A stretch of DNA of 64,000 nucleotides from an uncultured Solibacteraceae bacterium (GCA_964419785.1 CAYQRM010000136.1:5305-69304), one strand, 5' to 3'. Positions 42,069-57,879 are shown, numbered from the stretch's first letter. Numbers and translations: made by a program. The notes: generated from the sequence alone by a model not told the origin.

Positions 42069-42260
42069 GCGCTTCCCGATGTCTCCGACCCTGCCCCCTT
42101 GGATTTGGCTGGTGATCCTTAGGACAGCTCCCGGATGACTCGCCCGGTACTGTACGGGAGGTGCAACGGCCGTGCGGGGACGCGTCGTATTGATCTGGCA
42201 GTCCGGTGCGTCCCCTGTTGCCAGCCAGGCGTGGCGCGATTCCGGCGTTGGGTGGCACTT

Positions 42261-42536
42261 ATGTTGGGAGCATCTGAACAGCAAGCTCTGGTCACGCGGC
42301 TCAACCGGATCGAGGGTCAGATTCGCGGGATCCGTCGCATGGTCCAGGAACCCCGGCTCTGTATCGAGATCCTGCAGCAGCTGGCGGCAGCCGAAGCCGC
42401 ACTCAATCGCATCAGCCTGGCGGTCTTCAAGCATCACGTCGACGCGTGCGTCACCGACGGCGTGTCGAAGGGCGAACCCGAGCGGCGAAAGCAGCTGACT
42501 GAGCTGGTCGATATCTTCGACCGCTTCGCGAAGTAG
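42261..42536 (+). CDS. csoR: CsoR/RcnR-family metal-sensing repressor (CsoR-type Cys-His-Cys)
   Basis: RLNRIEGQIRGI.RMV...R.C.EIL.QL.A...AL, HHVDAC. Confidence 0.85.
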   Translation: MLGASEQQALVTRLNRIEGQIRGIRRMVQEPRLCIEILQQLAAAEAALNRISLAVFKHHVDACVTDGVSKGEPERRKQLTELVDIFDRFAK

Positions 42537-42659
42537 GCCCTACCCGCTACCAGTACCCCAATAGAGTGGATCGAGGCCTATCCAAGGTCTTGGATACGGC
42601 CGGCCAGACCCTGGGCCCCCGGGGCGGCCGGTCTTTATAAGTCAATAAGTTACAAGGTC

Positions 42660-42688
42660 TTGACACCCACCAAAATTGTGGGTGAAAT
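42660..42688 (+). promoter_or_regulatory. Sigma70-type promoter of the TBDR gene with an operator palindrome in the spacer
   Basis: TTGACA (42660) - 17 bp - TGAAAT (42683); CACCCAC-caaaatt-GTGGGTG at 42664-42684. Confidence 0.6.
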
Positions 42689-42775: not shown

Positions 42776-45715
42776 ATGCAGAAACGACTGGTACAAGCCG
42801 CCCTGGTGGCCTTGTGCCTGATGGCGTTCGCTGGTCTCGCTTCCGCCCAGGTGTTCACTGGGCGCATAGATGTGACCGCGAAGGACGGTACGGGCGCCGT
42901 ACTGCCGGGCGTCACCGTCGATATCACTGGCCCGCAGTCGGCCAGTGCCGTAACCGACAGCCGCGGTGAGGCGCACTTCCTCAACCTCGCGCCCGGCACA
43001 TACACCGTCAACGGCAAGCTGTCGGGGTTCAACAACTACAAGAACGACAACGTCCCGGTAGGCGCAGGCAACGTCATCCCCCTGGACATCACGCTGTCGG
43101 TCGGCAACGTCGCGACCTCGGTCGAGGTCAAGGCGGAGACGCCGGTGCTCGAGACGAAGAAGACGTCCATCTCCACGAACGTGACTCTCGACGAGCTCCA
43201 GAACGTCCCGACGTCGCGCGATCCGTGGGTCGTGCTGCAGACCGTACCTGGCATCACCGTTGACCGTGTGAACGTCGGCGGAGCCGAGTCAGGCCAGCAG
43301 TCGAACTTCCAGGCCAAGGGTGCTCGCGGCCAGGACAACACGTGGAACATGGACGGGATCGCGATCACGGACATGGCCGCGCTCGGTTCGTCGCCGACCT
43401 ACTACGACTTCGACATGTTCCAGGAAATGCAGGTGACGACCGGCGGCGCCGACGTCACGACCGCGACGCCAGGTGTCGGGCTCAACTTTGTGTTGAAGAG
43501 CGGCACCAATCGCTTCCGCGGGTCGGGCCGGTACTATTTCGAGAACGACGGATTGCAGTCCGACAACCTGTCGGCGGCGTTGACGAGCCAAATCACGAGC
43601 TACAACCGCGTGCAGGCCTACTACGACATGGGCGTTGAAGCCGGCGGGCCGATTGTCAAAGACAAGCTGTGGTTCTGGGGTGCGTACGGCTACACGAATC
43701 CGCGGCTGAGGATCTACACGTACTCGAAGAGCGGTGGCGCGACGATCTTCAACCAGGGCACCGATTCTCAGTGCTCGCAGCTCGGCACGACGAGTATCGC
43801 TCCGCCACAGGCCTACTCGGTCACCGCCCGCGACTGCACGACGTTGAAAAACACCTCCGCCAAGCTGAATGGCGATTTCAACAGCGCGACGCACGCCTCG
43901 TTCACCTTCTTCGAAGGCAACAAGCAGAAGTTCGGCCGCAGCGCTGGTCCGACCCGCCCGTCAGAGACGACCTGGAATCAGGACGGACCAACTCGACTGT
44001 ACAAGGCTGAGGTCAACCGCACCATCTCGGACAGCCTGTTCGTGACCGCACGGTACGCACACATTCAGGGCGGTTTCACGTTCCAGCCACTTGGCGGCAC
44101 CTCGGGTAACGTCACGGCGTGGCAGGACGACAGCGCGATCTGGCACGGGACCTACTACTCCTACGACACGAACCGTCCCCAGGACACGCTTCAGCTGGAA
44201 GGGACCTCGTTCAAAGGCATCCACGAGCTGAAGTTCGGCTTTGGCTGGCGCAAGTCGTCGGTCAGTTCGAACGTGACGTGGCCAGGCCTCGTGTATACGC
44301 TCGACAACGGGTACCCCGACTTGTTCGCGGCCTTGTCGCGTCCCTTCGCATTCAATGGACATAGCGTGTACTGGAACGCGTATGCCGGTGACGTCATCAC
44401 GAAGGACCGCTTTACCTTCAACCTCGGCCTGCGGTGGGACCGCCAAGCGGGCTCCACGGACCCGGTCTCGATCCCCGGCAACCCGCTCGATCCTGTCCAT
44501 CTGCCCGCGCTCAACGTCGGAGGCCAGGACAACGTCGTCGTCTACAACACCATCGTTCCGCGTCTCGGCGTGACCTACGCGCTCGGTAAGGATCGGAAGA
44601 CGCTGCTCCGAGCGACCTACTCACGATTTGCGGATCAGCTGGACTCGAACCTGCCGTACAGCCTGTCGATCGGCGTGCCGTACTACTCATATTCGTACTG
44701 GTACGCGACGGACAAGAACGGCGACCATCAGGCGCAGGCGAACGAGCTGACATCATTTGTGGGCACGAACGTTCCGCACGCCACGACCGGAAGCTATAAA
44801 GTGCCGAAGACGGACGAGTTCGTCCTCGGCGCCGACCATGAGCTCATGCCGAACTTCGGCGTCAGCGCATCGTGGACGTATCGCCGCCGGACCGATCAAG
44901 ACTGGCTGCACCTGAACGGCTTGACCGGCAGCGACTACGTGCAGACCGGATCGCTCGTCGGCAACGTCGCGCCCATCGGTCCCTTCTGTGGGAGCAGCGC
45001 CGGGTGTCCGCTCTATTCACCGCTGCCGGGAACCGTACCTTCTGACCTGGGCTTCATCTTCGAGAGCCGTTCCGGTTATCACCAGACGTATAAAGGCCTC
45101 GAGATCGCCGGGACCAAGCGGATGTCCAACAACTGGATGATGCGCATGTCGTGGTCGGGCGGAGCGAACCGCGAGTACTTCGACAGTGTTGACGCCAAGG
45201 CCGATCCGACACCCACGCTGCCCGGCAACGCTGAGTGGACGACGAATTCGCCGAACGTCAATGGCGGCGTCGTCATCACGCAAACCTCCGGCAGCGGAAA
45301 GAGCAACATCTTCATCGTGCTGCCGAAGTATCAGTTCGTGCTGACGACCGCATATCAGATGAAGTACGACATCAACTTCGGTCTCAACTACTTGTTCCGG
45401 CAGGGCTATGCCGAACCGTACTACAACAGCTCGACGCTCGACCCAATCACCGGAGGCCGTCGCAATGTCGTGGTGATCCCGCAGAGCGTTGACGACTACC
45501 GGCTGCCGAACGTGCACTCGGTGGACGGCCGCGTGAGCAAGGGCTTCAATTTCAAGACCTTCACGGCCAACGTCGACTTCGATCTGTTCAATATGTTCAA
45601 CTCGGCCACGCCGCTCGGCAAGCAGTACGACCAGCGTCGGGCGAACTTCAACCAGATCTTGGAGATCATGAATCCGCGCATCCTGAGGATCGGTGTTCGC
45701 GTGTCGTTCAAGTAA
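42776..45715 (+). CDS. TonB-dependent receptor, Oar-like, with N-terminal CarboxypepD_reg domain
   Basis: Signal ..LASA|Q; TGAVLPGVTV, plug LQNVPTSRDP..LQTVPG, DGIAITD, FQEMQVTTGG, FNLGLRWD, DLFNMFN, C-terminal PRILRIGVRVSFK. Confidence 0.92.
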   Translation: MQKRLVQAALVALCLMAFAGLASAQVFTGRIDVTAKDGTGAVLPGVTVDITGPQSASAVTDSRGEAHFLNLAPGTYTVNGKLSGFNNYKNDNVPVGAGNVIPLDITLSVGNVATSVEVKAETPVLETKKTSISTNVTLDELQNVPTSRDPWVVLQTVPGITVDRVNVGGAESGQQSNFQAKGARGQDNTWNMDGIAITDMAALGSSPTYYDFDMFQEMQVTTGGADVTTATPGVGLNFVLKSGTNRFRGSGRYYFENDGLQSDNLSAALTSQITSYNRVQAYYDMGVEAGGPIVKDKLWFWGAYGYTNPRLRIYTYSKSGGATIFNQGTDSQCSQLGTTSIAPPQAYSVTARDCTTLKNTSAKLNGDFNSATHASFTFFEGNKQKFGRSAGPTRPSETTWNQDGPTRLYKAEVNRTISDSLFVTARYAHIQGGFTFQPLGGTSGNVTAWQDDSAIWHGTYYSYDTNRPQDTLQLEGTSFKGIHELKFGFGWRKSSVSSNVTWPGLVYTLDNGYPDLFAALSRPFAFNGHSVYWNAYAGDVITKDRFTFNLGLRWDRQAGSTDPVSIPGNPLDPVHLPALNVGGQDNVVVYNTIVPRLGVTYALGKDRKTLLRATYSRFADQLDSNLPYSLSIGVPYYSYSYWYATDKNGDHQAQANELTSFVGTNVPHATTGSYKVPKTDEFVLGADHELMPNFGVSASWTYRRRTDQDWLHLNGLTGSDYVQTGSLVGNVAPIGPFCGSSAGCPLYSPLPGTVPSDLGFIFESRSGYHQTYKGLEIAGTKRMSNNWMMRMSWSGGANREYFDSVDAKADPTPTLPGNAEWTTNSPNVNGGVVITQTSGSGKSNIFIVLPKYQFVLTTAYQMKYDINFGLNYLFRQGYAEPYYNSSTLDPITGGRRNVVVIPQSVDDYRLPNVHSVDGRVSKGFNFKTFTANVDFDLFNMFNSATPLGKQYDQRRANFNQILEIMNPRILRIGVRVSFK

Positions 45716-45734
45716 GGCGATCGAACGAAAAGAG

Positions 45735-45768
45735 AAAGGGCGCTGCCTTCTGGCAGCGCCCTTTTTTT
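45735..45768. terminator. Bidirectional intrinsic terminator
   Basis: aaa-GGGCGCTGCC-ttct-GGCAGCGCCC-ttttttt between convergent genes. Confidence 0.9.
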
Positions 45769-47911
45769 ATTGCAGTGATTTCCAGCCCAGCACCGCGAGC
45801 GCGTCGCGTGCCTGCTGTTCGAACGGGCCGCCAATGGCGAGATATTTCTTGTACGCCTCGATCGCACGCTCGCGGTTGCGATCGGCGAGCATGGTCGTCG
45901 CGGTGGGGTTCGAGGACGTGCTGCGCAGGATGCGCAAGAAGAGGAAGTGATAGGCGCGCCCGAGGTTGAAATAACCGAGGCCGTCGTCGGGCGCGGCCGC
46001 GATCGCCTTGTTGAACGCGTCCACGGCATCGTCAAAGGCGGCGCGCGCGACCAAGACGCATCCGGCGGCCAGGTGCGTTTCAGCGTCGTTCGGCCAGCGA
46101 CGCTCCGCCTCGCGCAGCACCGTCAGCGCGTCACTCTGGCGATGCTGCTGAATGTAACTGTCGGCCAGGTCGAAATAGACCGGTTCGTAGTCTGGAAGAT
46201 CGTGCCGAACGCGATCGAAGGCCTGAACCGCCGCGTCCAGGTGCTGGAGCGCGAATTCCGCCTGGCCGAGCGCGTACTGGATCCACGCAGCGTTCGGCGA
46301 GGCCGCCGCCGCACTTGCGAGCTTCTCTCGCGCCTCCTCGACGTGCCCCTTGGCGTACAACTGCCACCCGTCGTGCGCCAGCTGCGTCGCTTCAGGGGTG
46401 GCAGTTCGTCCGGCGTTGCTGCCCGACGAAGCGAGTACCGTCACCAACCCGACACTATCCGGACGGCTGATCAGGCCTGACTCGTCGGGCCGGCGCGGCG
46501 CGCCCATGATGCCGGACTTTCCGACGGCTAGTGGGAGCGCATCGACGACGGTTCCGATCGGCACCGCAGACGGCGTCGTCGATGCCGTCGCTCCCGAAGG
46601 TTCTTCCGGCGCGGCCGGGCCAGTCGCGCTTCTCGCGGCGAGGTATCCCCGCCGGGCGCGCACGACGACGTCGGGACGCCGCACGGTGACCTCGAGCTTG
46701 CGATACGAGTCGTCGAAAGCTTTCGCGGGCCGATAGCCCAGCATGTAGTACGTGCTCGTCTCACGCGCGAGCCGATCGAGTGGCTCGCGGAAGTTGTTGT
46801 AATTGAAAACGCGATCGCCGCCGGTATCCAGCGCGAGGCTCGTCAGCACGTCGGCATTGGCATCATTCGAGAGCGACGTAAGCTCGCCTGTCAACGTCAG
46901 CGGTGCGGGACCCAGAAAGGACTGCATGCGCTCGTCTTTGCCGATGCCGCGTGCGTCGAACGTCGAGAAGTGCACGCCGTTGCGCGCGGCAAGCCCCACC
47001 ACCGTCTTCAGCCATTCGCTGGTGTCGTCGGTGTAGAAGCCTTCAGAGAACACCACCACCTGCTTCGGCCCGGGAATGCGCGCAAGGCCGTTGGCAAGCG
47101 ACTGCAGCTCAGTGAGGCTGATCGATGTGTCCCGCATGGTCTCGGCGGCGATTCGTCGGCCCTTCTCCTCGACCTGCTGGCGAACGCTTTCGTCGCCGCC
47201 CCGGTTGCACTCGCCCGGCTGTTCGGCGCATCCGCGACGCACGACCGCGTCGATCGTCGGCTGGTCGTCTTTGGCGATCTTCGCGGCTTCGAACTCATCG
47301 AGAATTCTTGGGAAGCTCCGCATTTCGGCGAAGCGAGACAAATTCGGCGTCTTGACGTCCGCGAACGTCTTCTGCAGCGCGTCTCGATCGCCGGTGATTC
47401 GATTGCCGAGCATCTTGCCGTTGGCGACGATGCCGACGAGATCGCTTGGCGTGAATTGGTCTTTCAGAAAGTCCAGGATGGCGTCGCGACTGCGCGTGAA
47501 GCCCGCGGCGGACAAGTGGTTCATGTCGAGCATGAACACGAACACGCGCTGTTTCATTTCGCGGCGCTCGGGACGTTTCGCAGTCCCGGAGGCGAGCGAC
47601 GTCGTCGCTGACGCATCGAGGACTTTTCGATCGAGCGAGGCGAGATAAATCGTCTGAATCGTCTGGCTCTGTCCGTCTTCACGAATATCGAAGTCGGCTG
47701 CCGTCAGATCCGTCACGGGTTGGCCGTTCTTGTCGGTAACTGACACGTCCACTTCGACAAGATCCACTCCCGCGGAAAACTGCGGACGAGCCTGGGTGGC
47801 CGACGCCGGGCGTGGCGATGTGGTTGGAGGCGGCGTTTGCTGCTGCGCCAGTACTGTCGCGGCGCCGGCGGCGAGGAGGGTCGCCGACAGGATCGCAGAG
47901 CCTGGCCGCAT
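45767..47911 (-). CDS. Secreted acidobacterial VWA-domain protein with C-terminal TPRs
   Basis: FSAGVDLVEVDVSVTDKNGQPVTDLTAADF...EDG..Q.I, FMLDMNH, KQVVVFSEGF, L..LA.DTGG, YY.LGY.P, VRARRGY; TPR helices; start reassigned to ATG 47911. Confidence 0.88.
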   Translation of the reverse strand: MRPGSAILSATLLAAGAATVLAQQQTPPPTTSPRPASATQARPQFSAGVDLVEVDVSVTDKNGQPVTDLTAADFDIREDGQSQTIQTIYLASLDRKVLDASATTSLASGTAKRPERREMKQRVFVFMLDMNHLSAAGFTRSRDAILDFLKDQFTPSDLVGIVANGKMLGNRITGDRDALQKTFADVKTPNLSRFAEMRSFPRILDEFEAAKIAKDDQPTIDAVVRRGCAEQPGECNRGGDESVRQQVEEKGRRIAAETMRDTSISLTELQSLANGLARIPGPKQVVVFSEGFYTDDTSEWLKTVVGLAARNGVHFSTFDARGIGKDERMQSFLGPAPLTLTGELTSLSNDANADVLTSLALDTGGDRVFNYNNFREPLDRLARETSTYYMLGYRPAKAFDDSYRKLEVTVRRPDVVVRARRGYLAARSATGPAAPEEPSGATASTTPSAVPIGTVVDALPLAVGKSGIMGAPRRPDESGLISRPDSVGLVTVLASSGSNAGRTATPEATQLAHDGWQLYAKGHVEEAREKLASAAAASPNAAWIQYALGQAEFALQHLDAAVQAFDRVRHDLPDYEPVYFDLADSYIQQHRQSDALTVLREAERRWPNDAETHLAAGCVLVARAAFDDAVDAFNKAIAAAPDDGLGYFNLGRAYHFLFLRILRSTSSNPTATTMLADRNRERAIEAYKKYLAIGGPFEQQARDALAVLGWKSLQ

Positions 47912-47922
47912 CGTCGAGCACT

Positions 47923-48693
47923 TCACCTCTCGACCTTCGCGATGACGACGGCGAACTTGTTCCGTCCACGGCCTTCGAGGTAGGCGAGCTTCTGTCCATC
48001 CGCAGTCCACGCCGGGAGGACGACCGACTTCGTGCCATCGATCTTCTGCCGAGCTCCGGTCGAGTCCATGATCACCAGTCGCCCGGTCGACTTCTCCGCG
48101 TACGCGATCATGTGGCTGCCGGCCGGACCCCACCCGAACGTGAGCCCTGGAACAATCGCGTGATTGACCCATTCGCCGACGATTTCGCCCTTGAGAAGCA
48201 TGCTGTAGACGGTGCCATTCGTGGACGCATTCGCCGCGGCCGTCACTGATTCGACCGACGCCCCATTGGCGGTGCCATCCGTGCCGCCTCTCGCGAGATC
48301 GCCGCCCATCGGAATGGCCGTCGCGGACGCAATTCGCTTCTCCGTGGAGATCTCGATCTTGAACGCAGCGTCGTCCGGCGCGGTCTGCCCCGACTTCCAG
48401 GACCAATAGCCAATCGCCCAATCAGGCTCAGCGTTGACTTTCTGGAATGTGCCGCCCGTGGCCGGCATCACGTAGTGGTACGAATCTTTCGGCAGGGCGC
48501 GCTGATCCTCGGTGACCGTCTGCAGATACAGCTGTGTGCCGTCTGGCGACCACGCGAGCTGCCTGACCTGGCTGCCTTTCATCTTTCCAAGATCGAACTG
48601 CGCGATCTCGCTCGGGGTGAGTTTCAACTGTGTCGCGGGGCTCTGTTGGGCGACGAGCGCGGTCGATGCCAGGACGAACACGAAAGCTTTCAT
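47923..48693 (-). CDS. Secreted hypothetical protein with TolB/WD40-like repeats
   Basis: AAGGAG RBS; signal ..ALVA|Q; LAWSPDGTQLY, PAWTADGQKLAY. Confidence 0.7.
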   Translation of the reverse strand: MKAFVFVLASTALVAQQSPATQLKLTPSEIAQFDLGKMKGSQVRQLAWSPDGTQLYLQTVTEDQRALPKDSYHYVMPATGGTFQKVNAEPDWAIGYWSWKSGQTAPDDAAFKIEISTEKRIASATAIPMGGDLARGGTDGTANGASVESVTAAANASTNGTVYSMLLKGEIVGEWVNHAIVPGLTFGWGPAGSHMIAYAEKSTGRLVIMDSTGARQKIDGTKSVVLPAWTADGQKLAYLEGRGRNKFAVVIAKVER

Positions 48694-48724
48694 TTGCGTC
48701 TCCTTAAGTCACCGCTTGCTCAAC

Positions 48725-51361
48725 TCACTTCTTCAAGCCATCGAGCATGCGTCGGAGCTCAACGGATTGCGGCAGCGCCGCCAGTCCCGATTCCAAGGCC
48801 TGCCGCGCGAGCGCCGGCTGCTCCAGACGCAGATACGTCTCGGCCAGCGCGAGGTGCGCGGACACGAGCGTCGGATCGAGAAATGCCGCACTCCGAAAGG
48901 CCGATGCGGCGGCCACCTGGTTCCCCACGCCGAGTCTTGCCCAGCCAAGGACGAACGCTACGCTCGCGTCCGTCGGCTGACGTTCGAACAACTGCTCGAG
49001 GTCGGCCGCGGCGCCCGGGTAATCCTGGCGATCGAGACGCGCCAGCGCACGTAGTCGCACCGCGTCAGGATCCGTCGCGACGCTGCTCGTGAGGTCCGCG
49101 ACGTTTGTCCATCGTCCGGCCTGCGCTTCGCCCGCAGCTTGACGGACGTTTGCCACAGGACTCGTCAGCGCGTGATCCACCATCGATTTGACGATCGCTC
49201 CCCGCAGCACATCGCGGGCCGGTGGCGTTGTGGGGATGGCCGCCGCTTCTCGAGCCTTGGGCGACCGAGCCGCCGTATCTGCCGGGCGCATGCCGTCGAC
49301 GACCTGCAGTTGTCGCCGAAGATCGCCCACGACCTCGCCGCCGGCGCGAATCACCGCGTGAGCGATGTAATCGCCTGGCGGAATGTCGGACAGCGGCAAC
49401 GTGAACGAGACGTCACGAACGATCCCCTGGTCGGACGAACGCGGGTCGGCAACCGTGCCGCTGACCGAACGCGTCGGACGATCGGCCGCACCGTTGGGCG
49501 AGGCGGCGAGACTCATCAAGTCCAGCGAAGCGGAAAGGCCAGCCAATTGAACCTCGTTCCGCCCGTACACACGGACCGCGCCCGCGATCAGGTCGCTTGT
49601 GTAGCCGATTGAGTGGACCGGCAAACGATCGCCGGGTGTGCCGAGGATGAGATCGCTCGTCGCCGGATCGGGGCCGCTGAGGCTGCGCACCGTGAATTGG
49701 CGATCGGCGCTGCCGACGAGTCCCCCGGGTTCGCGCACGACACAGCGCATCATGTAGTCGCCCGGGGGCAGATCGAATCGCGTGCGCCAGATGCCGACGC
49801 CCGCGGCACGGCCCGGAACCGGATCCCGCGGGAGCGGGATGCTGTCTGCACCTTTCGCGGCGATTTGACTCGAGCTCATGTCCCGGACGACGAAGACGAC
49901 GTCAGCGGCGCCATCGACCGGCGAAGCGTCAACCGGAAGATCCGCATTGAGACTCACGGCAACGTTCTGAAGGCCAGGATGCTCGGACTGTCCGACGTAG
50001 GTCGTGTACTCGACGCGCAGGCTCTGTTGATTGAACGGCGCGGCGAGCGCGGACTCGATCGCTCGGCGGCGATCGGCAGGCGTCTGGGAAGGGCCTGCCA
50101 CGTAGCCGGTACGCGTGCTGACCCGCACGCCCGGCCGGGTGACTCGCACCGACACGCGTCGGTAGGCATCGCGATCAGCGAGGGCGGCCGACGGCGCGGG
50201 GAATCCAATGACGTAGTAGTCGGGCTCGGCGGCGCCGAGCGCGTCGAGGGCCTCATCGAGATGGCTCGCCGCATCGAGGACGAGCTGGCCGTTCGTGTCC
50301 GACGCCAGCATGCTCAACGGCTCGAGCCGGTTGGCAATCTCGGACGGAACGTCGCTCCCGAGTGGCATGTTCGCGCTCAGACTCTCCATTCGCCGATTCA
50401 GATCGAACGCGTAGACGACTGAATACGTTTCGGCGGAAGCCGCCGCGACCTCTTCGACCGACCGCGAGACGTTGTCGCTGTGGAATCCTTCGGAAAAGAG
50501 GATCACCGTCTTGCGTCCGTCCACGGCGCGGAAGCTCCGCAGCAACTGCGACATCATGTCGAGAAACCGACGCGAGTCTGCGTCAGCGCGCTGCACGATG
50601 AGATTCGCCTGGTCCTTGATCAGGTCCCGCAGCGTGCTGGGATCGCCGCCGCCCGTCTTTCCCGTGACGTCGGGAAGCACGCCCGTTCGGCTCGGGGTTC
50701 CTCCCGTCGTCGTCATGAAGCGGTTGAGCACTTCGTCGTTGCCGCGCAAGATCTCGTACGCCTCGTTGACCGTCATATCCCGGTCGCCGGGCGTGAGGAC
50801 CCGTTCGAGCTCGCCGCGCACGTGCTGCAACTGCGCAATAGCGACGTTGACTTGCGCGGTGAATGGCTGGGCGGGCCCAGGGCCGGGCAGGCCGTAGACC
50901 GCGACGCGATCTTCAGGCCGGAACCTCCGTCGAAGGAACTGCTCGGCCGCGACACGCACGCGCTGCTCCGCGCCCGATGTGATGTGGAGCTGATCGAAGA
51001 CGAGCACGTAGAGCTGCCCGCGAGGCGAGCCCTGGTTGGTCGAGATCTCGCCCGCGATGGTCCTCTGTGCCGCCTCGAGATACGTGCGCCCGGATGCGGC
51101 GACGTGCTGGAACAGCACGATCGGTTGACGCGTGCCGGCGTCCAGGACCTCGACCTCGTCCGGCCGCAGGTCGGCGACGGGCCTGCCGGACGCGTCGGTC
51201 GCGCGCACGTCGAGCCGGACGACGTCAACGCCCGCGCGGAAGATCGCTTGATCGGCCGGAGCTGCCGGCGTTTGCGGCGCCTGCGCGAGCAGCGGCACCA
51301 CCAGAGCCAGCGCGAGCGCCAGGGGCAGTCGATCGAGCGCACGGCGCGTCCCACTCAGCAA
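48725..51361 (-). CDS. Secreted acidobacterial VWA-domain protein with extra Ig-like domains and TPRs
   Basis: FRAGVDVVRLDV.ATD..GRPVADL, LVFDQLH, KTVILFSEGF, LASDTNG, YYVIGF, STRTGY; TPR tail; start codon uncertain. Confidence 0.85.
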   Translation of the reverse strand: MLSGTRRALDRLPLALALALVVPLLAQAPQTPAAPADQAIFRAGVDVVRLDVRATDASGRPVADLRPDEVEVLDAGTRQPIVLFQHVAASGRTYLEAAQRTIAGEISTNQGSPRGQLYVLVFDQLHITSGAEQRVRVAAEQFLRRRFRPEDRVAVYGLPGPGPAQPFTAQVNVAIAQLQHVRGELERVLTPGDRDMTVNEAYEILRGNDEVLNRFMTTTGGTPSRTGVLPDVTGKTGGGDPSTLRDLIKDQANLIVQRADADSRRFLDMMSQLLRSFRAVDGRKTVILFSEGFHSDNVSRSVEEVAAASAETYSVVYAFDLNRRMESLSANMPLGSDVPSEIANRLEPLSMLASDTNGQLVLDAASHLDEALDALGAAEPDYYVIGFPAPSAALADRDAYRRVSVRVTRPGVRVSTRTGYVAGPSQTPADRRRAIESALAAPFNQQSLRVEYTTYVGQSEHPGLQNVAVSLNADLPVDASPVDGAADVVFVVRDMSSSQIAAKGADSIPLPRDPVPGRAAGVGIWRTRFDLPPGDYMMRCVVREPGGLVGSADRQFTVRSLSGPDPATSDLILGTPGDRLPVHSIGYTSDLIAGAVRVYGRNEVQLAGLSASLDLMSLAASPNGAADRPTRSVSGTVADPRSSDQGIVRDVSFTLPLSDIPPGDYIAHAVIRAGGEVVGDLRRQLQVVDGMRPADTAARSPKAREAAAIPTTPPARDVLRGAIVKSMVDHALTSPVANVRQAAGEAQAGRWTNVADLTSSVATDPDAVRLRALARLDRQDYPGAAADLEQLFERQPTDASVAFVLGWARLGVGNQVAAASAFRSAAFLDPTLVSAHLALAETYLRLEQPALARQALESGLAALPQSVELRRMLDGLKK

Positions 51362-51375
51362 TTAGCACCTGATTT

Positions 51376-53550
51376 TTATAATTTACCACCGGCGAGAAAC
51401 CGCCGGACGGCCGCGATTTCCTGCTCGTGCAAGGCCGCCGGCGCGGTTTGCACGTATTGTCGGCCGTAGGCGCGGGCTTCCTCGATCTGGCCCGTTTCGG
51501 CCAATCCGAACGTGAGGTCGTACAGCGCGTCGAAATCCGTCCGGTCGAGTGCAAATGCCTGCTTCCAGGCGTCGATGGCGTCTGCCTTTCGGCCTGTCTC
51601 CGACAACACGACGCCGAGAGTGGTATAGGCGCCCGGCAGCTTGGGATCGAGCGCGAGGGCGTGCCGCAGGCTCGCTTCGGCCGCCTGATGATCGCCGGCC
51701 GACTCTTGCAGCGTCCCGATGTTCTGATACGCCAGTCCGCTCGCGGGATCGATCTCGAGAATCCGGCGGAAGGTCTGCATCGCTTGCGCCGATTTGCCCG
51801 CGCTTCCGTACGCGATGCCAAGCGCAATCAACGCGTCCGGGTCATCGTCGGTGGATCCTTCGAGCAGCTGGACCGCGCGTCCGGCTTGGCCGGTCTCCGC
51901 CAGGTACTCGCCGAGTTTGATTCTGAGCTCGGCCTGCGGAAGACCTCGGCGGAGTGCGGCGTCGAGCGTCGCGATCGCCTGAGCTGGTTGACCCGCCTGC
52001 CAGTACACGAACGCGAGATACCTGTAGGCGTCGGCCATGCCCGGACGACGAGCGAGCACGCCGGTATAGAGCTCCACTGCCGCTCGCCAGTCGCCATGTT
52101 CGTACGCGTCCGTCGCGCGGTGCATGGCTTGCTCGAGATCGACCAGCCGTTTCGGATCGTCGGCGTCCGTATATTTCTCCTGCGGCGGCGCGCTGCCGGT
52201 CGTGTATCCCAGCGCGCGCAGTTTCTCGGCCACCTCGATGGTCTCCGCGGCCGGTCGCCCCGGCGGATTGACATCGAAGCTTCTGAGAGTGGCCGCGAGG
52301 ACCGCCGCTCGATCGGCGCGATTCGCGAACTGATTCCGTTCTTCTCGCGGGTCGGTCCCCAGGTCGTAGAGCTCTGGCATCGGGAGGTCGATGTACTTGT
52401 CGCGTCCGGCGATCACGCCTCGAAGCGGTGCCCACCCGCGCGTGATGTTTGCCGACATCGCCTCGAAGTAGCCGGGCCGATCGGCGCCGCCTCCAGAGGC
52501 GATGAGCGGCAACAGGGACACGCCAGGCAGACTGCCGTCAGCCGGTGCGCTCACGGCGTCGAGGAGTGTCGGCACCACATCGACGTGGCGTACGGACGTG
52601 TCCACGACGATCCCGCTCGTCGTCCGGCCGTTCGGCACGATTTCCGCGACGATGAGCGGCACGTGCAGCGTCGATTCGTACGCGAAGAGGCCGTGGGTGA
52701 GTTCGCCGTGATCGCCGAGGCCTTCACCATGATCGGCCGTGACGATGACGAGCGTGGGGCGAGGCTGCGATGCGAGCGTAGCGAACAGCGGCCCGAGTGC
52801 AGAATCCGTCCACGAGACCTCGCCGAGGTACGGGTCGCCTGGGAATTTTGCAAGCCACTCGGGCGGCGGACGATAGGGGGCGTGCGGATCGTAGCAGTGT
52901 ACGAACGCGAACCACTTGCCGGATTGCTGGTGGATCCAGGCGAGCGCCGGCTGGATCACCTCGTCCGCGCGTCGTTCTGGCAGCGTGAAATCGGCCTGCG
53001 ATCCGATTTCGCCGACGCGGTCGTCATAGACATCGAAACCCGGCGCAAGACCGAAGCGGTGGTCGAGCGGAAATCCGCCGATGAAGGCTCCGGTAGCAAA
53101 GCCGATCGCTTTGAGGCGTGTGGCCGCGGTCGGTTCGCCCGCGCGCAGCAGGTAGCCGGCGTTGTCGCGGATGCCGTGCTCGTACGGATAGCGGCCGGTC
53201 AGAAGGCTGGCGTGTGAGGCCAGCGTGACGACGGCTTGCGCGTGCGCGAACGTGAAGCGTGCGCCGTGCGCAGCCAGCCCATCGAGATTCGGCGTGAGCG
53301 CGCGGCCGCCGTATGATCCGAGCGCGTCGGCGCGCAGCGTGTCGATCGACACGAGCAGAATGTTGCGATCGGCACGCGGCATGATGCTGAGCGCTGGCTC
53401 GCGCGCTCGCCACCACAGGCCGAGACCGACGACCGTGGCGATTGCGAGCGCGGCCACCAACCATCGCAGGCGTGATGCGGACGCTGACGGCGCGGCGGGC
53501 GTGCTCGCGCGTGCGCTGGCAGGTCGGCGAGGCGGTCTCTTCTTGGCCAT
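51376..53550 (-). CDS. Membrane-anchored sulfatase-like (alkaline phosphatase superfamily) protein with TPRs; Thr at the nucleophile position
   Basis: SIDTLRAD, VVTLASHASLLTG.YP, YDPHAPY, TADHGE; basic N-tail plus TM helix; TPR C-terminus. Confidence 0.88.
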   Translation of the reverse strand: MAKKRPPRRPASARASTPAAPSASASRLRWLVAALAIATVVGLGLWWRAREPALSIMPRADRNILLVSIDTLRADALGSYGGRALTPNLDGLAAHGARFTFAHAQAVVTLASHASLLTGRYPYEHGIRDNAGYLLRAGEPTAATRLKAIGFATGAFIGGFPLDHRFGLAPGFDVYDDRVGEIGSQADFTLPERRADEVIQPALAWIHQQSGKWFAFVHCYDPHAPYRPPPEWLAKFPGDPYLGEVSWTDSALGPLFATLASQPRPTLVIVTADHGEGLGDHGELTHGLFAYESTLHVPLIVAEIVPNGRTTSGIVVDTSVRHVDVVPTLLDAVSAPADGSLPGVSLLPLIASGGGADRPGYFEAMSANITRGWAPLRGVIAGRDKYIDLPMPELYDLGTDPREERNQFANRADRAAVLAATLRSFDVNPPGRPAAETIEVAEKLRALGYTTGSAPPQEKYTDADDPKRLVDLEQAMHRATDAYEHGDWRAAVELYTGVLARRPGMADAYRYLAFVYWQAGQPAQAIATLDAALRRGLPQAELRIKLGEYLAETGQAGRAVQLLEGSTDDDPDALIALGIAYGSAGKSAQAMQTFRRILEIDPASGLAYQNIGTLQESAGDHQAAEASLRHALALDPKLPGAYTTLGVVLSETGRKADAIDAWKQAFALDRTDFDALYDLTFGLAETGQIEEARAYGRQYVQTAPAALHEQEIAAVRRFLAGGKL

Positions 53551-53583
53551 CGATGGTCAGGCCGGGCGCAGCGTTGTCGCCAG

Positions 53584-55788
53584 TCAGCGTCCGAACTTCG
53601 CTTTCGCTTCCGATCTCACGCTCGCGGCGCGATCCGGTTGTCCGAACATATCCCACAAATGTGCAGCGGTCTCGTACGCCATCGGCGACGGCGAGACCTT
53701 CAGCATCTCCGCGATCTCGCGCTCCACGTCGTCGGGCCGGTTGGTGGACGCGTAGAGCATGGCCAGGCCGGAGCGCGCGCGCATGCTGCTTGGGTAGATC
53801 GAAAGCTCTTCACGAAACATCCGCTCGGCTTCGGGATATCGCTCGAGTCGCGCGAGCGTGTCGCCGACGTAAAAGCGGAGATCGGCCGGCTGCATCGTCC
53901 GCGCGGCCCATTCGTCGCGCGCTTTCATCAGGAGCGGCAAGGCCTCCTGATACTGCCCTTGGTTGTACGCGATCATGCCGCGGATATACGTGGGCATCGG
54001 CAACGTCGGGTCGGCCTGAGCCGCGAGATCGGCTTGTCGCTGGGCCTCGGCGTAATCCTTCTTCGCGAGCGCGATGTTGGCCAATGTCTGATGCGCGCGG
54101 CCTGGTGACGTCTTGAGGACGAGCTCGGCGTGTGCTCGCGCCTCGTCGTACCGCCGAAGCGTCAGCAGCGCCGCCGCGGCGCCGAGCAAGCCGCTCGGCT
54201 CTTCGGGCTTCAGGCGGATCACCTGTTTGTAGGCATCAAGCGCCTCGGCTTCGCGACCGAGCCGCGTCAGCACGACCGCGTACTGGACCCAGACGTCGGT
54301 CATGTCCGGGTTTGATTTGAGCAAGTCGCGGAAGCGATCGGCGGACGCCGCGAATTGGCGATCGTCGAGCAGCGTCACCGCCTCACGATACTGCTTGAGC
54401 ACCGGCGCCATCTCTTTCGGATCCGGCAGAGAGGACCCGGGCCGACTGGCGCCGGCCGAAAACTGCGTGCCGATATATCCAAGCGCGGCCAACCGCTCGC
54501 GATCTTCGGCCGATACCGCCGACGGTGCGTCAATGTCGCGTCCAGCCGTCAGCGTTTCGAGACCCGACCGCATGCCCGCCGCCGTCTGCGGGTGATCGGC
54601 GACGACGTTCGCGCGCTCGTGGGGATCGTCTCGAAGATCGTAGAGCTCGTCGTGCGGCGCCTTGATGAATTTGTACCGCTCGTCAGTGAGCGAGAGCAGC
54701 TCGCTCCAGCCAAAGTGATAACGCGGATAGAGCGCCTCCGAGTAGACGCCCTCCGCCGCTGGATGGCCGGTCGCGCGCAGCAAGGGCGTCAGGTCGCGCC
54801 CGCGCAGGCCCCGGGGCGCCGTGAGGCCGGCGAGCGTCGCGATCGTGGGGAACAGATCGATGTGTTGCACCAGGTCCGCGACGCGACGGCCCCCAGACTT
54901 TCCGCCCGGCAGCTTCATCAGCCACGGTACGTGGATGGTCTCTTCGTAGACGAACAATCCGTGTTCGTACTCGCCGTGATCGCCCAGGCCCTCGCCGTGA
55001 TCGGAGAGCAGCACGACGGTCGCGTTCGAGTACCAACCTCGGCGTTTGAGATCGACCAAGAGCTTGCCGACGATCTCGTCGGCATACGCGATCTCGCCGT
55101 CGTAGGGCGAGAGCGATGAGAATCGTTGTGGCGGCGTGTATGGCGTGTGCGGCTCGTAGATGTGAAAGAAGAGGAAGAAACGATCGTCGGAGAGCGTATT
55201 GAGCCATGCTTCCGCAGCCGCGAGCGTCTGCTCGCCAGGGCGCTGGACCTGACCGAGCGACACGTCGGACGCGGCGGCCGGCAGTTCCGCGTTGTAGACG
55301 TCGAATCCGCGTCCGATGCCGGTTTCCGGGCGCAGCACGTACGCGGACACGAACCCTCCGGCTTTGTAGCCCGCCTGATGGAAACGTTCCGCGAGCGTCG
55401 GTTTATCGGGCGCGAGCGTGAAGCCGAGATTGTCGCGCACGCCATGTTCGAACGGCAGCAGTCCCGTCAGGATCGACGTGTGCGCCGGCAGTGTCTGAGG
55501 CGCGTGGCTGTACGCGCGCTCAAAGAGCACGGACTCTCTGGCCAAGGCATCAATCGTCGGCGTCTGACCGTTCGCATAGCCATAGACGGGGAGGTGATCG
55601 GCCCGCAAGGTGTCGATCGAGATCAGCACGACGGCCCCGGGACGCACGGGCCGCACGAACGGCCAGACGACGACACTCGCGCCGACGATGAGGCCGACGA
55701 TCGCCAGCGCCAACAGCACGCGCGGCCATCGCGAACTCTTTGGATTCTGGCGAGGTTGGGAGCGCGCGGAGCGCGGCGATCGAGCCAT
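53584..55788 (-). CDS. Membrane-anchored sulfatase-like protein with TPRs (paralog); Thr at the nucleophile position
   Basis: SIDTLRAD, PQTLPAHTSILTG, YEPHTPY, LSDHGE; start reassigned to ATG 55788. Confidence 0.88.
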   Translation of the reverse strand: MARSPRSARSQPRQNPKSSRWPRVLLALAIVGLIVGASVVVWPFVRPVRPGAVVLISIDTLRADHLPVYGYANGQTPTIDALARESVLFERAYSHAPQTLPAHTSILTGLLPFEHGVRDNLGFTLAPDKPTLAERFHQAGYKAGGFVSAYVLRPETGIGRGFDVYNAELPAAASDVSLGQVQRPGEQTLAAAEAWLNTLSDDRFFLFFHIYEPHTPYTPPQRFSSLSPYDGEIAYADEIVGKLLVDLKRRGWYSNATVVLLSDHGEGLGDHGEYEHGLFVYEETIHVPWLMKLPGGKSGGRRVADLVQHIDLFPTIATLAGLTAPRGLRGRDLTPLLRATGHPAAEGVYSEALYPRYHFGWSELLSLTDERYKFIKAPHDELYDLRDDPHERANVVADHPQTAAGMRSGLETLTAGRDIDAPSAVSAEDRERLAALGYIGTQFSAGASRPGSSLPDPKEMAPVLKQYREAVTLLDDRQFAASADRFRDLLKSNPDMTDVWVQYAVVLTRLGREAEALDAYKQVIRLKPEEPSGLLGAAAALLTLRRYDEARAHAELVLKTSPGRAHQTLANIALAKKDYAEAQRQADLAAQADPTLPMPTYIRGMIAYNQGQYQEALPLLMKARDEWAARTMQPADLRFYVGDTLARLERYPEAERMFREELSIYPSSMRARSGLAMLYASTNRPDDVEREIAEMLKVSPSPMAYETAAHLWDMFGQPDRAASVRSEAKAKFGR

Positions 55789-55877
55789 CGGCACGCGAAT
55801 GGGCGGACTCGGCCAGTATAGTCCACGCTTCTCGTGTGGTTCTTGAGTTCCGCCGGAGTCCGCACGAATTCTTCCAG

Positions 55878-55898
55878 TTGAGACGCGAATTGTCTCAA
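55878..55898. promoter_or_regulatory. Palindrome TTGAGAC-N7-GTCTCAA in a divergent intergenic region (candidate operator)
   Basis: Perfect 7-bp arms, read directly. Confidence 0.35.
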
Positions 55899-56071
55899 GA
55901 GCTCTAAGGTGCAGGTAGTGGGTCAGTTTAAACGGGAACGAACGTTCCCCACGTCGCGCCGCCGATCGGTGATGCGTTGATGCGCGAGGGCAGCGAACAT
56001 CACCGCGGCGAAGAGCCACGTATACCCGCTCGGAGTCTGGCGACGCCCGGCCGTCGGCGCTAGCGTAGGAA

Positions 56072-57019
56072 TTGCCCATGTCATCACGCGGTCTCTGGCC
56101 GGTCGCTTGTACGGTGATGCTCTCGCTCTCCGTCGCGCATGGGCGTGCGCTCCCGGCGGCCCAAGGCGTCTCGCTCTCCGAGCTGCTCCAACGCTCGGCT
56201 TCATCTCTTGAGGACTTCGACACGAAGTTTTCTGCGGTGATCTCGCAAGAGTCCTACAAGCAGACCGAGACGAGGCTCGAGGGCCAGCCCGCGCAGCCGC
56301 GCACCTACAACCGACAGACAAAGTCGCAGATTCTTTTTGTCAACGGTGGCGGTACGTGGCTCTGCTTTCGCGATGTCTTCGAGGTCGACGGTAAAGCATT
56401 GCCTGACCATGTCGCGCGGTTCGCGCGGTTGTTGGAGAGCCCTGCTACGGCGTCTGTTGACGCGGGATCGCTTGCGACTCACATCACGTCGGAGAGCGCC
56501 AGATATAACCTCGGCGGCGTCGCACGGAATTTCAATCTGCCTACGATGGCGCTGACTTTTCTCAGACGCGCCAACCAGGAGCGGTCAAAGTTTCACGACG
56601 ACGGCGCCGAGCGCAAAGGTGACACCGCAGAGACGCACATTGTGTCGTTCTCGGAAAAACGACGCCCGACACTCGTCCGCGACGCCGCCAATCACGACGT
56701 GCCTGCAACGGGCCGATTCTGGATCGACACGTCTGGCCGAGTCGATCGCACGGAACTGAAGCTCGAGACCGAGGACGGTGTTCGCGCGACCGTCACGGTG
56801 GAGTACGGACCACAACCCAAGCTGGACATCTTCGTACCCCTTTCCATGCACGAGCAGTACGAACAATCAATCGTGGACAAGATCGACGCGCACGCTGAGT
56901 ACTCAGGATTTGTCGTTCCCAATGTGACGGTGGACCTAAGCGGTTTCAAAGAGGGCGCAGGCCTCACAGGCCGTGGCCGCGGAGGCGCTCCGCACAACCC
57001 AGCCAGAAGCCATAGATGA
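56072..57019 (+). CDS. Secreted hypothetical protein (acidobacterial family commonly near VWA genes)
   Basis: Signal ..LPAA|Q; FRDVFEVDGK, ESARYNLG...RNFN.PT.AL.FL, GRFWID..G.V.RTEL, A.YS.F. Confidence 0.7.
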   Translation: MPMSSRGLWPVACTVMLSLSVAHGRALPAAQGVSLSELLQRSASSLEDFDTKFSAVISQESYKQTETRLEGQPAQPRTYNRQTKSQILFVNGGGTWLCFRDVFEVDGKALPDHVARFARLLESPATASVDAGSLATHITSESARYNLGGVARNFNLPTMALTFLRRANQERSKFHDDGAERKGDTAETHIVSFSEKRRPTLVRDAANHDVPATGRFWIDTSGRVDRTELKLETEDGVRATVTVEYGPQPKLDIFVPLSMHEQYEQSIVDKIDAHAEYSGFVVPNVTVDLSGFKEGAGLTGRGRGGAPHNPARSHR

Positions 57020-57026
57020 GGCCCAG

Positions 57027-57203
57027 CCAGCGCGAGGCCACGCGACTCCCGTCGGCGTTCTGAAAGCTCTCGATCGTCTCGAACCTGAGATCGAGGATCT
57101 TCGACTGGAACTCGCGTACCCATTGCTTGAACGAGTCCTTCGTGCGGATGTCCACGCCGCCGCTCGTGATCACGAAGTCGTCGACCACATAGCGATCGAT
57201 ATG
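57027..57203 (-). pseudogene. Internal fragment of a SnoaL/NTF2-like (ester cyclase) gene
   Basis: IDRYVVDDFVITSGGVDIRTKDSFKQWVREFQSKILDLRFETIESFQNADGSRVASRW; lacks both termini; bounded by hairpin ggcgtggacgc-accc-gcgtccacgcc (57204-57229). Confidence 0.6.
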
Positions 57204-57263
57204 GGCGTGGACGCACCCGCGTCCACGCCGCAGGCCAGGTCACGCGGCCTGGGTTCCGCCCCG

Positions 57264-57788: not shown

Positions 57789-57821
57789 AGCCTCCGTTGT
57801 GGACGTGAGTTGAACCAACTA

Positions 57822-57832
57822 TCGTGTAAACG
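57822..57832. promoter_or_regulatory. Candidate MarR operator TCGTGTAAACG upstream of the cupin gene
   Basis: The same 11-mer occurs inverted (CGTTTACACGA, 58378-58388) upstream of marR. Confidence 0.5.
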
Positions 57833-57879
57833 ACTATTAGCGCCGCCCGACTCCGTCAATCGACCCCTCGCTCACCTGA

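Follow-up and report, generated by a model that had tools for sequence, protein, structure and literature searches.

Five co-oriented genes for exported proteins, which face a gene for a large TonB-dependent outer-membrane barrel, are kept, gained and lost as one block in the Vicinamibacterales. From the sequences we propose, at a joint probability of about 0.4, that the products may form a TPR-docked periplasmic complex acting on a phosphoester-bearing macromolecule that passes through the barrel, and that the cluster may be a lineage-specific accessory envelope module of this order.

Organization and conservation of the cluster

In the window, the whole stretch of 64,000 nucleotides that was analysed, the genes F (53584-55788), E (51376-53550), D (48725-51361), C (47923-48693) and B (45767-47911) follow one another on the minus strand with intergenic gaps of 33, 14, 31 and 11 bp and converge on A (42776-45715, plus strand). 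A bidirectional terminator hairpin at 45735-45764 (13 pairs, of which nine are G-C, flanked by an A-run and, on the opposite side, a T-run) sits between the converging stop codons of A and B. Coordinates, 11-33 bp gaps and hairpin confirm the layout described in an earlier note on this DNA, with five tightly spaced exported genes running from 55788 to 45767 against the barrel at a common terminator. That note had also counted in a divergent gene, G (56072-57019, plus strand; 315 aa, no family match); its coordinates hold, but as it does not accompany the cluster in relatives, it is no part of the unit.

Of 37 long orthologous loci, which all come from Vicinamibacterales MAGs, 33 show the order F-E-D-C-B facing A, with median gaps of 8-40 bp, and A is convergent to B in 34, including loci without the flanking csoR and NamZ genes described below. 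Comparison of 61 relatives showed C and D together in 21 genomes and neither of them in 38, with two discordant cases, and the module is missing from about 60% of related genomes. Such an arrangement is far beyond chance, and since the genes co-occur across an order and are present or absent together, the objection that they might not co-occur in other genomes is refuted. No report on such a cluster was found in the literature, and PADLOC models for anti-phage defence gave no match to A-G, in agreement with the previous statement that no characterised pathway fits.

The same genome harbours a paralogous cluster on contig C39 with two genes of the sulfatase-TPR type, two VWFA genes (one D-like, one B-like) and an Oar-type barrel. 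Three GT-C/PMT_2 glycosyltransferases, periplasmic modifying enzymes of which two have TPR, are encoded there as well. On contig C156 there is overlap between a third VWFA gene and the gene of an Oar-type barrel. VWFA genes lie next to barrels at four loci of this genome against about two expected, which is no clear enrichment, and outside the Vicinamibacterales members of the VWFA and sulfatase-TPR families mostly lie apart.

F-E-D-C-B would be transcribed as an operon from a promoter just upstream of F. A -10-like element, TATACT (55815-55820, minus strand), lies about 30 nt before the F start and is common to close relatives, the 9-mers TATACTGGC and GGATTATAC recur in six upstream regions, and the F start codon is backed by a conserved CGCGTGCCG-ATG. 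The promoter region of A contains TTGACA overlapping the palindrome CACCCAC-N7-GTGGGTG (42660-42684, plus strand), which is exact only in the closest relative (L045). Upstream of A and in the same direction follows a csoR-type repressor gene (42135-42536, plus strand), whose product matches the RicR/CsoR model at 7.8e-20 and shows a C-H-C fingerprint in its sequence; it takes this position in 15 loci and is associated with the cluster as a putative member. An exported beta-lactamase-fold/NamZ peptidoglycan-scavenging fusion adjoins the operon in 20 loci, an extra secreted CarboxypepD_reg-TPR protein is found beside the barrel in 27, and fad genes are likewise kept near the cluster. This wider gene order (csoR, fad genes, NamZ) is preserved among closer relatives.

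Active sites of the sulfatase-like proteins E and F

E (724 aa) and F (734 aa) are paralogues (34% identity) with matches to PF00884 (8e-35 and 5e-42, respectively) followed by TPR tails. Inspection by eye revealed one hydrophobic stretch after a basic N-terminus in each, and both are predicted to be membrane-anchored, F by a single N-terminal anchor. Their best PDB sequence matches (1e-30 to 1e-15) were all sulfatases or phosphonate monoester hydrolases (PMHs). Alignment of F to choline sulfatase 7oz8 (S-T-P-A-R) placed a Thr on the formylglycine Ser and a His on the Arg, giving the nucleophile motifs T99-L-P-A-H103 in F and T109-L-A-S-H113 in E and bearing out the claim that both sulfatase-like proteins carry Thr in place of the formylglycine residue. 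Among 120 pattern-matched orthologues, 106 retain both Thr and His and none has Cys or Ser; the two residues are invariant in the orthologue alignments of both proteins. Further invariant residues of E are D70, T71, R73, D75, H223, D273, H274, H281 and H286, beside T109 and H113, and the metal ligands D70/D59 and D273-H274/D263-H264 are invariant in E/F. The NPP-like motif SIDTLRAD opens both proteins, and PF01663 matches their N-terminal parts at 1e-12 (E, profile positions 2-66) and 5e-16 (F, positions 1-220). EptA/MCR models of NCBIfam matched about 50-70 residues around the DHG motif at 20-37 bits, compared to cut-offs of 500-1250.

An assignment of E and F as S1 sulfatases was rejected, as C/S-x-P-x-R is replaced by T-x-P/A-x-H and no formylglycine is possible. 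The Thr nucleophile and the NPP-type motif would instead imply phosphoryl transfer (phosphoester or phosphodiester hydrolysis or transfer) rather than sulfate hydrolysis, and for E and F a role as phospho(di)ester hydrolases or transferases is the most likely one. Sulfur or polysaccharide cycling in soils is inferred from metagenome "sulfatase" annotations, many of which likewise cannot denote true sulfatases. Each of the E and F lineages has been kept with every catalytic residue, and the same holds for the B/D pair, which suggests that E/F and B/D act as hetero-pairs.

The VWFA proteins B and D, the PD40 protein C and the barrel A

B (714 aa from MRPGSAIL) and D (878 aa) are secreted proteins that match TIGR03436 over model positions 1-323 with 176 and 148.4 bits, above the cut-off of 81.25. 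Pfam confirmed the previously noticed TPR arrays at the C-terminal end of four proteins (B, D, E and F), and these arrays match the YbgF/CpoB, LapB and BepA models weakly. The AF2 model of D (pLDDT 83; domain limits 47-87, 106-420, 450-560, 572-688 and 715-877) shows an N-terminal beta-sandwich, a VWA-like domain, two Ig-like beta-sandwiches and the TPR array, with fold matches to transglutaminase C-terminal barrels, RbmA and TPR proteins. D contains D123-Q-L-H126-I and S290-E291-G292-F293, of which D123, H126, S290, E291 and G292 are invariant among 30 orthologues, and B carries D-M-N-H-L and S-E-G-F. A canonical VWA or integrin I-domain was rejected, since D-x-x-H...S-E-G replaces the MIDAS pattern D-x-S-x-S...T...D; Pfam gave no VWA match in B or D, and a profile of the VWFA domain found no solved relative by sequence in the PDB. 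B and D are classified as adhesion-type VWA proteins with a modified metal site. The family is expanded, with 43 TIGR03436 matches in the window's genome; two congeneric genomes have about 50.

C (256 aa) is secreted, encoded by a single-copy gene and consists of PD40 blades, and its profile matches TolB blades at 4e-7. The earlier note had called it TolB-like, an identity that we do not uphold: TIGR02800 scored 23.6 bits against a cut-off of 343, a fold search had TolB on top with a TM-score of only 0.28, and both the N-terminal alpha/beta domain and a full six-blade propeller are lacking. The AF2 model (pLDDT 83) has about 19 strands in roughly 4-5 blades and a disordered loop, P-M-G-G-[DE]-L-A-R-G-G (residues 128-139), which is conserved in the orthologue alignment. 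Full-length B-C fusion proteins (P0192 and P0214) occur in other genomes from independent assemblies and support a physical association of B and C.

A (979 aa) has a signal peptide and Pfam matches to CarboxypepD_reg (residues 31-108; PF13620, 6.6e-12), Plug (131-228; PF07715, 2.3e-6) and the barrel family PF25183 (2.3e-26), by which it is assigned to the Oar-class TonB-dependent outer-membrane barrels; no relative by sequence was found among solved structures. The genome holds about 15 Oar-type TonB barrels. Profile searches found no ExbB/TolQ on the window's contig, with homologues elsewhere in the genome (C183 and C38), and all five genome matches to MoxR (AAA_3, PF07726) lie on other contigs. 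No DUF58 partner is encoded on this one either. The cluster genes have no SusD-family match, so the absence of MoxR, ExbB and SusD noted before is confirmed, and a Pfam search of A-G detected neither SusD nor glycoside-hydrolase families.

Proposed function and alternative explanations

E and F would be anchored in the inner membrane and face the periplasm, where they combine an arylsulfatase/phosphonate-monoester-hydrolase fold with a putative Thr nucleophile and the NPP-type T-x-P-x-H motif. The four TPR arrays would bring B, D, E and F together in a single periplasmic assembly, in which C is attached to B, and the acidic loop of C sitting in the VWFA site is one possibility. The substrate of this assembly would be a macromolecular cargo on its way across the outer membrane through A, which would gain or lose a phosphoester-linked group. 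Synteny, co-inheritance, the C39 cluster with its glycosyltransferases, the conserved active sites and the B-C fusions argue for such a module. So do the adjacency of A, which outlasts that of csoR and NamZ (34 of 37 loci compared to 15 and 20 loci), and the conserved cluster itself, in which no inner-membrane transporter or permease and no cytoplasmic catabolic gene was found. Several points count against it: A is convergent with its own promoter and a csoR-type regulator, which leaves co-regulation with the operon unproven; the usual direction of TonB-dependent barrels is import; E and F have a single transmembrane helix, unlike EptA or LtaS; VWFA and sulfatase-TPR genes are mostly non-adjacent outside the Vicinamibacterales; VWFA genes in this genome are not clearly enriched near barrels; and the VWFA domain has no solved sequence relative. 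The TPR-scaffolded periplasmic complex tied to the barrel, as first suggested in the earlier note, thus fits all the observations, having lost G and the TolB identity.

Modification or assembly of envelope or surface material may be the role of the cluster, but at least one other explanation, nutrient uptake, competes with it. For uptake, A would import a phosphodiester-linked polymer or organophosphate (e.g. teichoic-acid-bearing wall debris or nucleic acid) to be hydrolysed in the periplasm by E and F, with the VWFA, TPR and PD40 proteins as binders or adaptors like the SusD-type partners in Bacteroidota. This would agree with the canonical direction of TonB barrels, with the plug and CarboxypepD_reg extension of A as in SusC, with the hydrolase-type fold of E and F (PMH/arylsulfatase clade, D-T-D-H metal site), and with the NamZ fusion beside the operon and the CarboxypepD_reg-TPR protein beside the barrel. 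However, fad genes are also conserved nearby, so NamZ may adjoin the operon simply through inherited gene order, and the conserved unit lacks a permease, a glycoside hydrolase and a cytoplasmic catabolic gene. In addition, E and F are predicted to be membrane-anchored, neither soluble nor lipoproteins, and conserved hetero-pairs of scaffold-type proteins are unusual in catabolism. We slightly favour export, with envelope material being modified and displayed, and consider import doubtful, although still the best placed of the alternatives.

It is unlikely that only the five-gene operon forms a unit and that A is an independent copper-regulated transporter, a neighbour by inherited gene order. 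The convergent orientation of A, its own TTGACA promoter overlapping the C/G-tract palindrome, the preceding C-H-C-type csoR and the synteny of csoR, fad genes and NamZ in closer relatives would all fit, but A stays beside B even without csoR and NamZ, the paralogous C39 cluster again includes an Oar-type barrel, and on C156 a VWFA gene overlaps such a barrel gene.

Improbable in our view is an export pathway for surface display in Acidobacteriota, not described before, with the VWFA proteins B and D as its cargo, decorated in the periplasm, chaperoned by C and pushed out through A. The decorators would be the TPR-tailed Thr-nucleophile phosphotransferases together with the GT-C glycosyltransferases of the paralogous cluster, and the acidic loop of the PD40 protein in the modified MIDAS site would serve as the chaperoning contact. 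If such a pathway existed, outward, energy-coupled protein export would be a general role of this very large and unexplained family of barrels in a phylum that dominates soils. An envelope-integrity or stress module in the manner of Tol-Pal or of the Bat aerotolerance operon (VWA/TPR), with proteins bridging inner membrane, cell wall and outer membrane and accessory or regulatory enzyme domains, is very unlikely: the PD40 blades of C, the VWA and TPR core of Bat operons and the weak TPR matches point that way, but there is no MoxR/DUF58 partner or ExbB/TolQ on the contig, C lacks the TolB N-terminal domain and full propeller, the catalytic residues of E and F are all strictly conserved, and absence from so many related genomes argues against a core envelope function.

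Acidobacteriota belong to the most abundant bacteria in soil. Three paralogue expansions in their genomes are unexplained, namely Oar-type TonB barrels, TIGR03436 VWFA proteins and sulfatase-like TPR proteins, the last with thousands of relatives in public data. The cluster holds one fixed member or pair of each, plus a private small protein, across order-level divergence and therefore offers a testable handle on all three families. If the barrel works with the operon, it would show non-SusD partners of TonB barrels outside Bacteroidota.

Comparison with known systems

In fold and in the D...D-H metal ligands, E and F agree with S1 sulfatases and PMHs (7oz8, 2vqr/2w8s), and as in the Mn-arylsulfatase EfAS and PMH, His is the fourth metal ligand (PMC12421950). 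Unlike these enzymes, E and F have T-x-P/A-x-H, one membrane anchor and a TPR tail of 250 aa. With NPP (PF01663) they have the Thr in T-x-P-x-H in common, and S-I-D-T-L-R-A-D resembles the NPP motif S-x-D-G-x-R-x-D. The second metal (Zn) site of NPP, D-x-x-x-H with a distal H, is not evident. Overall similarity goes to the sulfatase/PMH clade instead of NPP, LtaS or EptA. The lipid-dependent transferases (EptA/MCR, LtaS, OpgB) have 4-5 transmembrane helices compared to one in E and F, in which the multi-helix N-terminal domain for binding of the lipid donor is absent. Thr-nucleophile enzymes of the alkaline phosphatase superfamily such as BcsG, EptC and PptA can decorate exported polymers or proteins.

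By architecture (CarboxypepD_reg, Plug and large barrel), A is likened to Oar of Myxococcus xanthus and SusC-type barrels; Oar is reportedly necessary for secretion of the PopC protease, a precedent for outward traffic through a barrel of this type. In contrast to SusC/SusD loci it has no SusD partner and has csoR, CarboxypepD_reg-TPR and NamZ genes as extra conserved neighbours. C shares PD40 blades with TolB, which is longer (about 430 aa) and has a TolA-binding N-terminal domain missing from C. Exported or membrane VWA and TPR proteins are common to this cluster and the Bat operons with MoxR, whereas the VWFA domains here form a different family, their metal site is non-canonical, and enzymes and a barrel are further members of the cluster. 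Finally, B and D match the whole model of TIGR03436 (NCBIfam acidobact_VWFA), a purely bioinformatic family that is expanded here as described; the cluster adds two lineages with TPR tails, D with two Ig-like domains in addition, that are tied in a conserved operon to the enzymes, the propeller and the barrel.

Organization of the gene cluster

Seven long genes, here called A to G, lie in the cluster region. Gene A (42776-45715, + strand) encodes a protein of 979 aa whose signal peptide and predicted CarboxypepD_reg, Plug and PF25183 barrel domains follow one another as in Oar-class TonB-dependent transporters; no solved structure related to it by sequence was found. On the opposite strand, F, E, D, C and B form an operon of five genes (55788 to 45767, − strand) with gaps of 33, 14, 31 and 11 bp. 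Between the stop codons of the converging genes A and B lies a hairpin of 13 pairs (45735-45764), flanked by an A-run and, at its other side, by a T-run. These findings confirmed the tight, co-oriented operon converging on the barrel gene at a shared terminator that had been described in the earlier note, as well as the four proteins with TPR arrays: F (734 aa) and E (724 aa) combine such an array with PF00884, and D (878 aa) and B (714 aa) with a TIGR03436 acidobact_VWFA match above the cut-off. The small protein C (256 aa) is encoded between D and B. The annotated-length reading frames of B (884 aa) and F (879 aa) are too long at the N-terminus, and starts at 47911 for B and at 55788 for F are probably the true ones, as they agree with the homologues. 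Further support for the start of F comes from CGCGTGCCG-ATG, which is conserved, and from a TATACT box. Signal peptides of cleavable appearance were detected at the N-termini of B, C and D; in E and F this place is taken by a basic stretch with a single hydrophobic helix after it, and by the positive-inside rule their catalytic and TPR parts are predicted to face the periplasm.

The TATACT box is the only recurring element upstream of F, and no ECF-type, sigma-54-type or sigma-70 −35/−10 dyad is shared there. Two palindromes upstream of F, GGAACGTTCGTTCC at 55935-55948 and GAGAC-N7-GTCTC at about 55880-55896, are window-specific, being missing upstream of the operon in all 37 related loci, and a role as operators was rejected as they are not conserved. 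Ahead of A (42135-42684) there is a csoR-type repressor gene whose C-H-C fingerprint is of the Cu(I) type; after it come a hairpin and a TTGACA box, the latter overlapping the palindrome CACCCAC-N7-GTGGGTG just in front of A. Neither copA nor copZ stands beside csoR in the window; the order csoR-then-A recurs in 15 related loci, and the exact palindrome only in the closest relative. Homologues of MoxR and ExbB are encoded elsewhere in the genome and none on the contig of the window, so that the earlier statement that neither is present in the window holds, and PADLOC models gave no match for the cluster.

Conservation and co-inheritance

As C is single-copy in its own genome, it was taken as the anchor for comparing loci. 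Orthologues of C are present in 22-24 of 61 related genomes, and both C and D are found in 21 of these 61, neither in 38 and only one of the two in 2, indicating that gain and loss have affected the unit as a whole. Of 20 extended loci, 18 share one gene order, F/E-E/F-D-C-B with A opposite. A profile scan with one genome per species led to 79 loci, all from MAGs and labelled almost exclusively as Vicinamibacterales or Acidobacteriota. Among 37 long loci (at least 18 kb, C at least 40% identical), at least two sulfatase-TPR genes, D and B were each present in 36 and a convergent A in 34, with median intergenic gaps of 8-40 bp. The complete set occurs in 33 of the 37; the genes thus do co-occur in other genomes, a point on which the earlier note had let its proposal depend.

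Variants of the locus were also observed. In one family-level group (L051, L054, L055, L058, L061 and L102) the order is rearranged to A< F> E> C> A< F> D> B> F>, which places another barrel within the cluster and adds a third sulfatase-like gene; a third sulfatase-TPR copy is also present in several other loci. In 27 more distant loci (13601-14524 in L074, and 26 others) a secreted CarboxypepD_reg-TPR protein of about 300 aa is encoded between B and A, which is missing from the window and from its genus. Distant homologues of C (32-37% identity; L105-L122) occur alone or with a B-like gene only, without sulfatase-like genes or a barrel, and form a second, simpler C(-B) lineage.

The secreted protein encoded divergently from F (G, 56072-57019, + strand) had been counted as part of the machine, and this had to be given up, since none of the 99 related loci inspected contains G. 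It belongs to a multi-copy family of secreted proteins that 39 of 41 relatives encode at unrelated positions, and in three well-assembled genomes its genes do not adjoin VWFA genes. A single link was found from this family to the cluster: P0145, a protein of 612 aa from two samples (L134, L135) in which a domain of the G family (31% identity to G, E 5e-26) is fused with one of the C type; a small CarboxypepD_reg gene diverges from it on the opposite strand, and the gene that follows it starts, judged by eye, like an FGE/SUMF1-type domain. Beyond G, the window encodes an exported fusion of a beta-lactamase fold with NamZ, an exo-MurNAc-ase (58570-60987). This fusion adjoins the operon in 20 related loci with 64-90% identity (within L045-L114), and in the nearest relatives it is the gene immediately ahead of F, encoded on the other strand. 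The window differs in that G, a cupin gene and marR (56072-58362) separate the two, a block that looks like an insertion.

The proteins encoded by the operon

The sequences in the PDB nearest to E and F are true sulfatases and phosphonate monoester hydrolases (1e-30 to 1e-15). Alignment placed Thr at the formylglycine position and His at the Arg of C/S-x-P-x-R, the motif reading T-L-P-A-H in F and T-L-A-S-H in E. The pattern T-x-x-x-H was found in 106 of 120 orthologues scanned, the remaining 14 being unmatched by the search pattern, and no variant with Cys or Ser was seen. When 46 orthologues of each were aligned, both lineages proved to have kept the first metal Asp (part of S-I-D-T-L-R-A-D, a stretch that resembles the first motif of NPP), the Thr, the His, P-H, D-H-G-E and two more His, and therefore neither E nor F is likely to be a dead enzyme. 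The two appear to have been separate lineages since before the Vicinamibacterales diversified, which fits a hetero-pair. With 7925 proteins at E ≤ 1e-20 out of 8000 candidates scored, the family is very large, and the only name attached to it is "sulfatase-like hydrolase/transferase". Of the earlier designation as Thr-sulfatase-TPR proteins, the Thr at the formylglycine site, the PF00884 fold and the TPR array stand; the name sulfatase is unsafe because formylglycine cannot form, and the best-supported chemistry would be phospho(di)ester hydrolysis or transfer.

By its AF2 model (pLDDT 83), D is built of five parts: at the N-terminus a beta-sandwich (47-87), then an alpha/beta domain resembling VWA (106-420), a pair of beta-sandwiches (450-560 and 572-688) and lastly the TPR array (715-877). 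The folds nearest to this pair are transglutaminase C-terminal barrels and the two FnIII domains of RbmA, a biofilm scaffold. Instead of the canonical MIDAS D-x-S-x-S, D has D123-x-x-H126, and the usual T-D-G strand end of VWA domains is replaced by S290-E291-G292; these five residues are invariant in 30 orthologues of D and have equivalents in B. No solved structure related by sequence to the VWFA domain profile was found.

The model of C is confident (pLDDT 83, above 90 across most of the fold) and contains about 19 strands, equal to 4-5 PD40 blades. TolB is the top match by fold and by profile; a TM-score of 0.28 and a profile score far under the TolB equivalog cut-off rule out TolB itself. 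The earlier label "TolB-like" is thus right for the PD40 blades and the top match only, and C is a mini-propeller. A disordered insert bears the conserved motif P-M-G-G-[D/E]-L-A-R-G-G. As VWA metal sites usually bind an acidic residue presented on a flexible loop rich in Gly, we speculate that this loop might contact B or D. Among 1.8 billion representative proteins the C family is small (122 clusters at E ≤ 1e-30, and multi-repeat PD40 proteins inflate even this number). The same search returned a TPR-C fragment and two full-length B-C fusions: P0192, with 34% identity to B across residues 6-705 followed by a C domain, and P0214 (L131, L132, L133), which is encoded on a contig of 7 Mb and occurs in two assemblies independent of each other. 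These fusions give Rosetta-stone support to an association of B with C. P0204, like P0192 and P0214, unites B-type VWFA-TPR and C-type PD40 in one protein; integrase genes are present around P0214 and no sulfatase-like gene is nearby. A supposed D-C fusion in G013 turned out to be an out-of-frame Arg-rich artefact.

A paralogous cluster and the generality of the pairing

Contig C39 of the same genome carries a paralogous cluster (L001, 1202-19722) in the order PMT_2-TPR, Oar-type barrel, PMT_2, PMT_2-TPR, a protein of 502 aa, two VWFA genes (the D-like before the B-like one) and two sulfatase-TPR genes, cut by the contig end at the second of the latter. The D-like VWFA protein (723 aa) has the same two beta-sandwich domains as D, and the B-like one has 440 aa. 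Of the three PMT_2 (GT-C) glycosyltransferases, two carry TPR tails; the 502-aa protein is not a relative of C. A third barrel-VWFA site was observed on contig C156 (12516-18451): the start of a TIGR03436 gene (780 aa, the top match in the genome) shares about 16 bases with a gene for an Oar-type barrel (1204 aa, PF25183 at 1e-149). TIGR03436 domains were found in 69 of 121 Acidobacteriota genomes sampled, with 43 matches in the genome of the window, and some genomes contain as many as 30 sulfatase-TPR genes. A phylum-wide rule of VWFA/sulfatase-TPR adjacency was not supported, as 25 genomes across the phylum gave only the orthologous cluster and one pair 4 kb apart. Similarly, four VWFA loci within 10 kb of one of about 15 Oar-type barrels, compared with about two expected, are unconvincing for a general adjacency in the genome of the window. 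Taken together, these data give strong support to the specific cluster and weak support to a general rule that would join the families.

Proposed function and comparison with known systems

Genome comparison showed co-inheritance of a barrel, two membrane-anchored predicted phosphoryl-transfer enzymes, two proteins of scaffold or adhesin type and a mini-propeller. We propose that A to F make one periplasmic assembly, which would act on a phosphoester-bearing macromolecule moving through A. As the unit holds no permease or catabolic genes, E and F are membrane-anchored, their partners are scaffold-type proteins and the sister cluster on C39 includes GT-C glycosyltransferases, we lean towards modification and display at the envelope. 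Uptake and processing of an organophosphate polymer is a strong rival, import being the canonical direction of TonB-dependent barrels and NamZ genes being neighbours of the operon. A may also be a mere neighbour of the operon; its convergent orientation fits this, and its place beside B in 34 of the 37 long loci speaks for membership. That B and D are themselves cargo pushed out through the Oar-class barrel, a bolder form of display, is improbable.

The observation of the first reading is therefore confirmed and its interpretation partly supported: a TPR-scaffolded complex tied to the TonB-dependent barrel gains from co-inheritance and the B-C fusions, and loses G as a member and C as a TolB. 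That it matches no characterised pathway agrees with our literature search, in which nothing relevant was found on the cluster, on TIGR03436 or on this combination of families. The cluster is an undescribed envelope gene cluster of familiar composition. Lipid-dependent transferases of the EptA/LtaS type possess a multi-helix membrane domain, whereas E and F are without one. With Thr-nucleophile phosphoryl-transfer enzymes E and F have in common the D...T...D-H metal set, in which His is the fourth ligand as in the PMH/EfAS branch (PMC12421950).
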